Program-made: the position numbers and the translations under genes
Notes under the pieces: generated by a model
What the model was told of the DNA's origin: nothing
What the model saw: the letters and a program-made list of their open reading frames with translations, nothing else
Databases searched by the model: none
Shown here: piece after piece, positions 4,163-7,042 of the stretch
How positions within the stretch are numbered: the first letter of the stretch is position 1
Layout of the letters: each line of letters begins with the position of its first letter
DNA from: a virus
Strand: one strand, 5' to 3'
UHGV virus genome: UHGV-0236108
Length of the DNA: 31,992 nt

Positions 4163-4855
4163 TTAATTATGTCTCTTAAGGGTTTGCGACTGACTGATTA
4201 AGACCTTTCCAAAGACCATGAATCGGTGTTCGTTTTCGCTAGTAATTCCCCATTCACGGTAAATCTGGTTATCAGAAATCACCAGCAGTTTGTCAGGAAT
4301 CATTTGAAGTCTTTTAACGTATATTTTGTCATCAAAACCAAAGACATATATACCATCACCATCAAACTGATTGATGCTGACATCAACGAAGATGAGATCT
4401 CCTGGCTCAATGGTTGGACACATACTGTCCCCACGAACGTTGATAACTTTGATGTGATTGGCTGGTCGTCCGCCGAACATTGATACAGCATTATCAGTTC
4501 TGTATTCGATGGCATGAATCACATCAATGACATCACCGCCCTGGATAAGGCCATTTCCCGCACTGGCACTGATATCCAGCATTTCAATACGGAACACATC
4601 CTTCACCTGCGCAACATCCTCATTATTACTGTTTTTATATACAGTATTACTTTTGTGGGCAGAGGTAAAGAGATCAGCAATATCAACACCTAAGCTCTTG
4701 GCAATATTACTCAGTGTTTGTTCGGTAAATTGTTTTTGCTTACCCGTTTCTAAGCGCGAGATGTTCGCCGCATCTACTCCTATCGCTTCAGCGAGATCGG
4801 CGATTTTCATGTTCTTCGCTTGGCGAAGTTGTCTGACTCGGTTTCCTATGTTCAT
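4163..4855 (-). CDS. CI-type prophage repressor: N-terminal XRE helix-turn-helix plus C-terminal S24 (LexA-like) autopeptidase domain
   Basis: HTH segment MKIADLAEAIGVDAANISRLETG; C-terminal half with the S24-family layout (VRGDSMCPTIEPGDLIFVD ... KIYVKRL); no Shine-Dalgarno before ATG 4855, consistent with a leaderless PRM-type transcript. Confidence 0.9.
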   Translation of the reverse strand: MNIGNRVRQLRQAKNMKIADLAEAIGVDAANISRLETGKQKQFTEQTLSNIAKSLGVDIADLFTSAHKSNTVYKNSNNEDVAQVKDVFRIEMLDISASAGNGLIQGGDVIDVIHAIEYRTDNAVSMFGGRPANHIKVINVRGDSMCPTIEPGDLIFVDVSINQFDGDGIYVFGFDDKIYVKRLQMIPDKLLVISDNQIYREWGITSENEHRFMVFGKVLISQSQTLKRHN

Positions 4856-4952: not shown

Positions 4953-5213
4953 ATGCAATCACCATTACGAAATGTGCGTAAGGCGCATGGTTTCACTTTG
5001 CAGCATGTTGCTGCGGGTGTTCAAGTCAATCCAGCGACGTTGAGTCGTATTGAGAGGCTGGAGCAGATTCCATCTATCGAGCTTGCAGAACGTTTAGCCA
5101 ATTTTTTTAAGGGTGAAGTCAGCGAAATGCAGATTCTTTATCCGGCACGTTTTCAATCTAGCCAAAACCAGAATGGGTTTAAACCACAGGAACAGGAGGT
5201 GAACCGTGGGTAA
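4953..5213 (+). CDS. Cro-like XRE-family HTH regulator (86 aa)
   Basis: GGAGGG Shine-Dalgarno, ATG 4953; HTH signature FTLQHVAAGVQVNPATLSRIE; divergent from the repressor gene. Confidence 0.8.
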   Translation: MQSPLRNVRKAHGFTLQHVAAGVQVNPATLSRIERLEQIPSIELAERLANFFKGEVSEMQILYPARFQSSQNQNGFKPQEQEVNRG

Positions 5214-5243
5214 GCATCACTGGAAAGTAGAAAAACAGCCTGA

Positions 5244-5756
5244 GTGGTACGTGAAAGCTGTCAGAAAAACTATCGCAGCGTTGCCGGGGGGTACGCTGAA
5301 GCTGCTGACTGGCTGGATGTAACAGAGAACGCATTATTTAACCGCCTTCGTGCCGATGGCGATCAGATTTTCCCGCTGGGATGGGCAATGATTTTGCAAC
5401 GTGCTGGTGGAACTCACTTCATTGCTGACGCTGTGGCGCAGTCTGCAAATGGCGTCTTTGTGTCTCTTCCTGATGTCGAGGATGTGGACAACGCCGATAT
5501 CAACCAACGCCTGCTGGAGGTCATTGAACAGATCGGCAGTTATTCAAAACAGATTCGTTCAGCAATTGAAGACGGTGTAGTGGAACCGCATGAGAAGACA
5601 GCAATTAACGACGAGCTGTACCTCTCAATTTCGAAGCTGCAGGAGCATGCAGCACTGGTCTACAAAATTTTTTGCATTTCAGAAAGTAATGACGCCCGCG
5701 AGTGTGCAGCTCCGGGCGCCGTGGCGTGTCGTGACTGTGGAGAAACTAACGCATGA
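5244..5756 (+). CDS. CII-like regulatory protein (phage 186 CII / CP76-type), ~170 aa
   Basis: Position immediately after cro; segment [35 protein letters not shown] resembles the remembered 186 CII segment NKLNPEQPHQFTPPELWLLTDLTEDSTLVDGFLAQ; GTG start, similar length to 186 CII (169 aa). Confidence 0.5.
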
Positions 5757-6091
5757 ACAGTTTAACAACACACTACCGTCGCTCGCAACTGATTGCGCTT
5801 CCTGTACCGGGTGGAAAAGCGAAGGTGGAGTATTGCTATGCAGTAAATGTACCAGGTGGCAGGGTAATTGTAACCCACAGCTTTGCAGAGTGGGCTGTGG
5901 GTGATTTTAACCGGCAAAAGGAGACAGTCCTTTGCGACAAGTTAACCGCTGGTTCAAAGATCACTACGGAGTGCCCGTCAGAGTCATTCGTTGGGAGCCG
6001 GAAACACAACGGGTTATCTACCTCCGTGAAGGCTATGAGCATGAGTGCTTCAGCCCGCTCGAACAGTTTCGTCGTAAATTCAGGGAAATAG
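5753..6091 (+). CDS. hypothetical protein (112 aa); gene model uncertain, see findings
   Basis: ATG overlaps the upstream stop (ATGA) with a GGAGAAA upstream; N-terminal half protein-like, C-terminal half Ser-rich and overlapped by an alternative-frame ORF with a stronger ribosome-binding site. Confidence 0.35.
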
Positions 6092-6100
6092 AGGTCGGTC

Positions 6101-7042
6101 ATGAGCACTAAATTAACCGGCTATGTATGGGATGGTTGCGCAGCGTCAGGCATGAAATTATCCAGCGTGGCAATTATGGCCCGCCTGGCTGATTTCAGTA
6201 ATGACGAAGGTGTGTGCTGGCCATCAATTGAAACCATTGCCCGTCAGATTGGCGCGGGGATGAGTACCGTCAGGACGGCTATCGCACGGCTGGAAGCAGA
6301 AGGCTGGTTAACGCGTAAGGCGCGTCGCCAGGGTAACCGCAATGCGTCGAATGTTTATCAGCTTAACGTTGCGAAGCTTCAGGCAGCGGCATTTTCTCAA
6401 CTGTCAGATTCTGACCCGTCAAAATCTGACGCATCAAAATCTGACCCGTCAAAATTTGATGCGTCGAAATCTGGCAAAAAAGCGGGTTTTCACCCGTCAG
6501 AATCTGGCGGGGATCCGTCAGTAAAATCAAAACATGATCCGTCATATAAAAAACCTTCTCGTCCGGACGCTTCGCAACCGGACACGCAGACGGATGAACA
6601 GGATTTTTTAACTCGCCATCCTGATGCGGTTGTATTCAGCCCTAAAAAGCGCCAGTGGGGAACGCAGGATGATTTGACCTGCGCACAGTGGCTCTGGAAA
6701 AAAATCATCGCCCTGTACGAGCAGGCCGCCGAATGTGACGGCGAGGTGGTTCGTCCCAAAGAACCGAACTGGACAGCCTGGGCAAACGAAATTCGCCTGA
6801 TGTGTGTGCAGGATGGTCGTACTCACAAACAAATCTGCGAGATGTACAGCCGCGTCAGCCGCGATCCGTTCTGGTGCCGTAACGTGCTCAGCCCGTCGAA
6901 GCTGCGGGAAAAATGGGATGAGCTTTCCCTGCGCTTATCGCCGTCCGTCAGCACGTACACAGAAAAACGCGAAGACCCGTACTTCAAAGCCAGTTACGAC
7001 AATGTGGACTACAGCCAGATCCCGGCAGGATTCAGGGGGTGA
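6101..7042 (+). CDS. replication initiation protein, lambda O-like (N-terminal winged-helix DNA-binding domain, iterons inside the gene)
   Basis: N-terminus with HTH-like segment (ETIARQIGAGMSTVRTAIARLEAEGWL); codons 100-150 are the in-frame read-out of the iteron array (SDSDPSKSDASKSDPSKFDASKSG). Confidence 0.75.
   Translation: MSTKLTGYVWDGCAASGMKLSSVAIMARLADFSNDEGVCWPSIETIARQIGAGMSTVRTAIARLEAEGWLTRKARRQGNRNASNVYQLNVAKLQAAAFSQLSDSDPSKSDASKSDPSKFDASKSGKKAGFHPSESGGDPSVKSKHDPSYKKPSRPDASQPDTQTDEQDFLTRHPDAVVFSPKKRQWGTQDDLTCAQWLWKKIIALYEQAAECDGEVVRPKEPNWTAWANEIRLMCVQDGRTHKQICEMYSRVSRDPFWCRNVLSPSKLREKWDELSLRLSPSVSTYTEKREDPYFKASYDNVDYSQIPAGFRG
6403..6555. repeat. origin-of-replication-like element: five tandem 15-bp iterons (6403-6477), degenerate copies, then an AT-rich stretch
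   Basis: GTCAGATTCTGACCC / GTCAAAATCTGACGC / ATCAAAATCTGACCC / GTCAAAATTTGATGC / GTCGAAATCTGGCAA head to tail, then CCGTCAGAATCTGGCGG and an A/T-rich tract (aaaatcaaaacatgatccgtcatataaaaaacc). Confidence 0.65.

Follow-up and report, generated by a model that had tools for sequence, protein, structure and literature searches.

SfiC, an SOS-linked division inhibitor known for 35 years, is accepted to be ymfM (b1148), which belongs to the e14 prophage of Escherichia coli K-12 and is treated in the literature as a single gene encoding 112 amino acids (aa). The DUF4222 family (PF13973; phrog_1343) has no known function, and neither a link between ymfM and DUF4222 nor the frame of another gene reading across a DUF4222 gene was found in the literature searched. 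Both genes occur in UHGV-0236108, a virus genome of 31,992 nucleotides (nt) which in its full length is called the window here and which represents a lambdoid E. coli prophage of the e14/SfII type. Its immunity and early-right region has the gene order of e14 (repressor, cro-like gene, ymfL, ymfM and replication gene), and its ymfM is colinear with that of K-12, differing at 9 of 359 nucleotides and 5 of 112 residues. However, the second half of this ymfM is an out-of-frame reading of DUF4222. We consider it probable that the interval consists of the end of ymfL and two real genes, ymfM and DUF4222, overlapping out of frame.

An earlier note, made from the letters of the sequence, had listed three competing readings of positions 5590–6111, i.e. 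(a) the 112-codon frame of ymfM, (b) a 59-codon frame starting at a TTG and (c) an alternative frame with a zinc-ribbon-like motif, and had left the choice between overlapping small genes, a frameshift and an error. The three open reading frames (ORFs) are all present in the ORF list of the window (Table 1). The start of (a) indeed lies in an ATGA (5753–5756) in which its ATG shares bases with the TGA (5754–5756) of the upstream CII-like gene ymfL and which is preceded by GGAGAAA at 5739–5745, and the strong Shine-Dalgarno sequence proposed for (b) is found as AAAGGAGA at 5917–5924. Since 2,716 records, from complete E. coli genomes and from phages SfII and SfIV, match positions 5200–6200 at 95–99.9% identity, and the locus is 99–100% identical in these two phages and in thousands of the genomes, the interval is not an assembly artefact. 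Positions 5590–6111 are colinear with K-12 e14, with SfII and with 50 close haplotypes taken from genomes and viral contigs, and in every one of these (a) has 112 aa and (b) 59–60 aa. Of the explanations offered earlier, overlapping genes therefore stands for (a) and (b), while a frameshift or error within 5590–6111 does not.

The reference annotations of this locus conflict. The K-12 entry at the position of (a) is "cell division inhibitor YmfM" (SfiC), with nothing for (b), whereas the Prokaryotic Genome Annotation Pipeline (PGAP) places in near-identical genomes a 59-aa DUF4222 protein (WP_001250269.1) exactly at (b) and leaves 5757–5931, the conserved 5' half of ymfM, blank. Phage records annotate either (a) or (b), and several carry only (a). 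In PHROGs, phrog_1170 corresponds to full-length (a), phrog_20047 to its N-terminal 63 residues and phrog_1343 to (b). Among the three readings, Pfam matches (b) only, and a search of NCBIfam gave no match for any of them.

Reading (b) belongs to DUF4222 with a high score over the full length, and PGAP annotates it so in further E. coli genomes. It scores 67.3 bits against PF13973, above the gathering threshold (cutoff 27), over profile positions 3–52 of 53 (E = 8.6e-19), and it matches phrog_1343 with E = 2e-34. We found 139 homologues of 59–70 aa, named DUF4222 by NCBI, across the Enterobacteriaceae. All lineages examined start (b) with ATG, GTG or TTG at the same codon, which in most of them is 179 nt downstream of the ymfM ATG (range 167–179 nt). 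In most lineages this start is preceded, at 8–9 nt, by GGAGG, GGAGA or a weaker, purine-rich motif resembling a Shine-Dalgarno sequence. Comparison of the window, K-12 and SfII over 5932–6111 revealed four substitutions, all at third codon positions of (b). Among the 50 haplotypes, the overlap has 15 changes that are silent in (b) but alter the protein of (a), 4 with the opposite effect and about 3 that alter both, the pattern expected if (b) is the older frame of an overprinted pair. These comparisons indicate that DUF4222 is a real, independently initiated gene under ordinary purifying selection. Its structure model is a five-stranded small beta-barrel with a predicted local distance difference test score (pLDDT) of 82.7, and the fold is predicted to be of the small SH3/KOW/Tudor-like type. 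Since a fold search returned generic KOW/Tudor/SH3-like small beta-barrels only, all with E above 0.03, no function was inferred from these matches.

The N-terminal part of ymfM, referred to as a-N, is conserved in its own frame. The 50 haplotypes carry 17 synonymous and 2 nonsynonymous polymorphisms in it, 4 of the 6 differences among the window, K-12 and SfII over 5753–5931 are at third positions of frame (a), and it is recognizable across genera down to 43% identity. Homologues of (a), most of them 111–117 aa long, are strongly conserved over about 57 N-terminal residues and poorly conserved in a Ser/Thr-rich second half. The earlier note had held that its ambiguous, overlapping models would be refuted if related phages conserved just one frame as protein; in our comparison this is so part by part, with (a) conserved as protein over 5753–~5926 and (b) over 5932–6111, but frame (a) is nevertheless kept stop-free across (b). 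The same module stands alone as a gene of 53–65 aa in phages or prophages of Providencia, Hafnia, Morganella, Citrobacter (phiNP) and Yersinia (YeP3), among them phages without an adjacent DUF4222. In an AlphaFold2 model of YmfM, residues 1–66 form three strands and two helices with moderate confidence (pLDDT 66–84), and a search with this model gave no structural neighbour (best E = 1.9). The substitution pattern and the distribution together indicate a genuine coding module in codons 1 to ~58 of (a).

Diverged loci were collected by four routes: i) a genome scan with a-N, ii) tblastn of a-N against phage genomes, iii) contigs carrying diverged (a) and iv) contigs carrying diverse DUF4222 genes. 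A scan of viral contigs (IMG/VR) gave near-identical copies only (97–100%), which were used for the population polymorphisms and not for deep comparison. Frame (a) runs through all of (b) in elements of the E. coli, Klebsiella, Phytobacter, Pantoea, Enterobacter and Kosakonia type. In relatives from Providencia, Hafnia, Morganella and Yersinia, a-N terminates on the start codon of the following gene; in those from Morganella and Yersinia, this next gene is DUF4222, and the a-N stop and the DUF4222 ATG share an ATGA. The loci L098 and L094 have a-N sequences that are 98% identical and (b) sequences that are 38% identical, and hence a-N and (b) recombine independently. Mosaic boundaries lie near window positions ~5766 and ~5926–5932, and in many phages, SfV, cdtI and Stx2c phages among them, the match to the window breaks off about 13 nt beyond the ATG of ymfM. 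Rare in-frame fusions of the YmfM N-terminal module to DUF4222 (P0060, P0063 with 14 members, P0032 and P0052; 102–119 aa) apparently come from 1-nt indels at varying points of the junction and overlap.

The C-terminal tail of YmfM had been described as Ser-rich and odd, which is correct, the reason being that it is the +1 reading of DUF4222. Residues 68–110 are disordered by prediction (pLDDT below 50). The density of changes synonymous in (b) within the overlap (15 in 53 codons) is about that of changes synonymous in (a) within a-N (17 in 57 codons), and the four-fold divergence of (b) is at least that of a-N. The synonymous rate in (b) is thus not reduced, and the tail imposes no detectable amino acid constraint.

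Nevertheless, the frame itself is open. In 14 of the 14 lineages in which the upstream ORF reads into DUF4222, the +1 frame of (b) contains no stop over the observed length. The probability of this was computed exactly by dynamic programming, given the (b) protein of each lineage and the codon usage of the window, and ranged from 0.04 to 0.18 per lineage. The product is ~7e-8 for the seven lineages found without use of the tail (the window, L007, L104, L110, L112, L113 and L116) and 1e-9 for nine mutually diverged lineages. Four-fold sites of (b) differ by 0.4–0.9 between lineages, with many transversions, and since they are saturated, the codon choices are close to independent. At the codons where a purine would create a stop in the second frame, namely Val, Leu and Ile codons followed by a codon starting with A, the third base is a pyrimidine in 39 of 39 cases (19 C and 20 T), as against 16 purines and 35 pyrimidines at the corresponding safe sites (Fisher p = 4e-5); GTG and GTA are used in (b) where the following codon begins with C. 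No such avoidance was seen in the other genes of the window, where 41% of Val and 76% of Leu codons before A end in a purine. The +1 frame of the other long ORFs of the window has 0.043 stops per codon, which corresponds to an openness of ~0.10 for 53 codons. Furthermore, the +1 frame behaves as chance would predict in the four controls whose upstream gene has its stop at the (b) start codon: it is closed in all of them, with 3 internal stops in Morganella, 3 in Serratia BZS1 (a KilA-N gene upstream), 1 in Yersinia YeP3 and 6 in Citrobacter phiNP (rha upstream). Taken together, the codon data indicate that the choice among synonymous codons in DUF4222 keeps frame (a) free of stops across (b), beyond chance.

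The position at which frame (a) ends is conserved as well. In 9 of 15 lineages, with differing types of replication gene, the stop begins at -12 from the replication-gene ATG; in the remaining ones it begins at -18, -6, +5 or +8, and the stop of (b) ranges from +1 to +41. Within (b), the stop of frame (a) falls on a rare NTA codon (ATA in eight loci, TTA or GTA elsewhere), even though the synonymous sites of (b) are saturated in other respects. In the window, the TAG is made up of a rare Ile codon, ATA, of DUF4222 and the G of the following codon, and it abuts the GAGG Shine-Dalgarno sequence (6091–6094) of the replication gene, whose ATG sits within the final codons of DUF4222. Two relations had not been remarked on in the earlier note. 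Frame (a) is in frame with the replication gene (6101 - 5753 = 348), and the TAG, at -12, is the sole stop between them and so averts a fusion of YmfM to O. Secondly, the frame of (b) is also that of (c), the two being divided by TGA at 5902–5904 and TAA at 5908–5910.

A possible mechanism can be outlined from these arrangements. The ancestral arrangement would have been one of ATGA junctions, as in Providencia, Hafnia, Morganella and Yersinia. In the e14 type, ymfM starts on the ymfL stop and encodes a conserved, folded module of ~60 residues, after which its frame continues for 52 codons through the next gene, DUF4222, which has a Shine-Dalgarno sequence and a TTG start of its own. Selection would then act on the passage of ribosomes, or on the presence of some flexible tail or linker, rather than on the sequence of the tail. 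The mechanism that we prefer, although we give it somewhat less than an even chance, is translational coupling, in which ribosomes move along ymfL, ymfM and the replication gene and end on the ribosome-binding site of the latter. An upstream stop close to the downstream start, as coupling would require, is found at both ends of ymfM (ATGA at ymfL-ymfM, and a ymfM stop at -18 to +8 in the 15 lineages).

Several points weigh against this interpretation. With a more conservative null, in which the own codons of each gene are shuffled, the product is 8e-5 and the values per lineage are 0.05–0.7. Fisher's method, which is inappropriate for a binary open/closed outcome and in place of which products are reported, gives p = 0.0013 for the codon-usage null and 0.41, not significant, for the own-codon shuffle. 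The multiplied probabilities overstate the significance because the lineages share ancestry, and six lineages were found by the full 112-aa query, which is biased to long ORFs. Prophages of Atlantibacter and Entomohabitans, which have lost most of DUF4222 and keep a short a-N ORF of 75–78 aa, can evidently do without the long tail. Proximity to the Shine-Dalgarno sequence of the replication gene could itself account for the conservation of the -12 stop and of the rare ATA. Nor does the replication gene obviously need coupling via ymfM, as its start is preceded by a GAGG of its own and is overlapped by the stop of DUF4222 as well. Finally, that ribosomes starting at ymfM would translate through DUF4222 is read from the sequence.

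A narrower version of the overlap, possible though on the whole unlikely, is that the +1 frame is conserved only as an open conduit to the replication gene or to Ash/Rha domains, and that the SfiC phenotype may be partly or wholly that of DUF4222. Less probable again is the idea that there are just two adjacent small genes, the 52-codon extension being a neutral accident of a lost stop whose openness reflects shared ancestry or biased sampling. It would fit a tail that is free of amino acid constraint and predicted to be disordered, the occurrence of a-N elsewhere as a stand-alone ORF of 53–65 aa, and the weakness of the own-codon shuffle in single lineages. It does not account for the separation of the 14 open read-in lineages from the 4 closed controls or for the 39 safe codons among 39 risky ones, and shared ancestry is difficult to reconcile with saturated synonymous sites and with a-N/b recombinants (L098 and L094) that all stay open.

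It is very improbable that a frameshift or a sequencing error has broken up one ancestral gene, or that a programmed frameshift fuses a-N to DUF4222. Rare database proteins are such fusions, as mentioned above, and an A-rich CAAAAGG lies at 5915–5921, but the two-frame layout is identical in the 50 haplotypes and in all diverged lineages, (b) has its own start in all lineages examined and a Shine-Dalgarno-like motif in most, and the TGA at 5902 and the TAA at 5908 precede it in its own frame. No canonical X XXY YYZ slippery heptamer is present in frame (a) at the junction, and Morganella and Yersinia have two separate genes joined by ATGA. A programmed ribosomal frameshift would call for a conserved slippery site and no downstream initiation signals, and the junction has neither property.

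That only the 112-codon ymfM is real and (b) is a chance ORF is more improbable still and is already contradicted; the K-12 reference and several phage records do annotate just (a), but (b) has the strong Pfam and PHROG matches, the conserved start and Shine-Dalgarno sequence and a confident fold, the substitutions are synonymous in it and nonsynonymous in (a), and homologues of it are present in 111 phage records as compared with 42 for a-N, so that it is found without a-N in about 69 more. Reading (c) was tried as a small zinc-ribbon gene across the ymfL-ymfM junction and rejected, its probability being negligible: the C-x2-C-x11-C-x2-C motif noticed earlier (DCASC-x11-CSKC) does exist in the 104-aa frame starting at ATG 5590, but it overlies the conserved coding sequence of a-N in another frame, G5859A turns TGG into TGA (5857–5859) in K-12, SfII and 36 of the 50 haplotypes, most diverged lineages examined have stops, other lineages have lost the first CxxC so that neither the open frame nor the four cysteines are conserved, and Pfam, PHROG and NCBIfam searches gave no match.

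With ymfM and DUF4222 read as two overlapping genes, the assignment of SfiC is confounded. The library clone D1-8E spans ymfL 142–185, ymfM and ymfN 1–92 (PMC3614548). For pBAD24-ymfM, the preprint states that "the open reading frame" was cloned and makes no mention of codons, frames or truncations (Ansari et al., doi 10.1101/2020.11.19.390815). Filamentation is reported there for pBAD-ymfM, and inhibition of the FtsZ ring with filamentation was obtained with the K-12 allele only, from a construct which also holds most of DUF4222 (doi 10.1101/2020.11.19.390815). If the insert of pBAD24-ymfM ends at the ymfM stop, it contains the Shine-Dalgarno sequence and TTG of (b) and 53 of its 59 codons. 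Since D1-8E and pBAD24-ymfM carry both ORFs and the ymfM deletion removes both, the published experiments cannot separate the two products, and the one that blocks Z-ring assembly may be either YmfM or DUF4222. The folded module of ~60 residues encoded by a-N is likely the functional core of the SfiC division inhibitor.

Table 1. Features of the window around ymfM and DUF4222 (positions are those of the 31,992-nt stretch)
Feature	Position	Strand	Remarks
CI-like repressor gene	4163–4855	minus	
Cro-like gene	4953–5213		
ymfL, CII/CP76-like regulator	5206–5756	+	Pfam Phage_CP76, E = 6e-12
Reading (c), rated non-gene	5590–5904	+	spans the 3' end of ymfL and the 5' half of ymfM in another frame
ymfM, reading (a)	5753–6091	+	112 codons, ATG start; phrog_1170 over full length, E = 1.6e-68
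ymfM N-terminal module (a-N), codons 1–58	5753–5926	+	sole part of (a) selected at the protein level
Shine-Dalgarno AAGGAG of the DUF4222 gene	5918–5923	+	8 nt before the TTG, read from the sequence
ymfM C-terminal tail	5927–6088	+	+1-frame read-through of DUF4222
DUF4222 gene, reading (b)	5932–6111	+	59 codons, TTG start; Pfam PF13973
ymfM stop TAG	6089–6091	+	12 nt 5' of the replication-gene ATG and in frame with that gene
Replication initiator gene, O-like, HTH_36	6101–7042	+	Pfam HTH_36, E = 4e-11

The remaining features of the region are summarized in Table 1. The gene upstream of ymfM, for which the earlier note had given a CII-like model at 5244–5756, exists as ymfL (PGAP name "protein YmfL" in the near-identical genome H1), but that model is affected by a 1-bp frameshift in the window. 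The G-run at 5286–5291 has 6 G, as compared with 7 G in SfII and H1, and the frame from GTG-5206 ends at 5320–5322, with the remainder of the gene in another frame. The ten best of the 2,716 matching records (99.4–99.9% identical) are all one base longer across 5200–6200, as confirmed by alignment for H1 and SfII. The missing G is due either to a sequencing error in the homopolymer or to recent decay of ymfL into a pseudogene.

The replication gene is annotated in SfII as O protein or primosomal protein. Inside it, the window contains 5–6 tandem units of 15 nt, TCAAAATCTGACCCG-like, at 6404–6478 (also 6482–6511 and 6526–6544), which are probably origin iterons, as in lambda. An Rfam search found nothing relevant, a sub-threshold mir-5880 match merely falling on these repeats and being regarded as spurious. 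A minus-strand ORF of 90 aa opposite DUF4222 (5836–6108) was considered and rejected as an antisense shadow, with 1–4 stops in most other lineages.

The K-12 small-RNA candidate ECS003 is similar in placement to the OOP RNA of lambda, which lies opposite the 3' end of cII. ECS003 (116 nt, with a band of ~70 nt) is the most abundant cis-antisense candidate and was reported to be antisense to the ymfL-ymfM junction, the region taking in the ymfM ribosome-binding site (PMC3175480); its equivalent in the window would be ~5690–5800 on the minus strand. A simple promoter and terminator scan of 5100–6400 gave sites no more numerous than in shuffled sequence and found nothing at this position.

Translationally coupled chains with ATGA-type junctions occur in lambdoid early operons, and the ymfL-ymfM junction is of this kind. 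The e14 type differs in having no stop at the junction of a-N with DUF4222, so that a ribosome would go on for ~160 nt across a whole gene. The same +1 frame is open through a DUF4222 homologue in SfV orf37 and in the "Ant" gene of an Stx phage (P ~0.07 each), where it runs on into further domains, Phage_ASH in the former (278 aa) and Phage_ASH with Phage_pRha in the latter (Stx1a, 340 aa). These ORFs, annotated as "transcriptional regulator" (L119, 752–1588) and "antirepressor Ant" (L123, 884–1906), are either real fusions with an overprinted linker or ORFs whose annotated starts lie too far upstream. In SfV-like and Stx-converting phages, the +1 frame through DUF4222 may act as a linker to the Ash/Rha domains.

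Overprinted or embedded phage genes are well known from lambda Rz/Rz1 and from the overlapping genes of phiX174, in which both products have sequence-dependent functions. As in those pairs, two frames of one DNA are used at the ymfM-DUF4222 locus, and the younger frame is disordered and compositionally biased. Unlike in those pairs, the younger frame here shows no amino acid constraint, with only its openness and the position of its stop conserved. The locus thus offers a clean comparative case of a frame conserved for these two properties while the encoded sequence drifts, with a bearing on the evolution of overprinted genes and of translational coupling in mosaic phage genomes.

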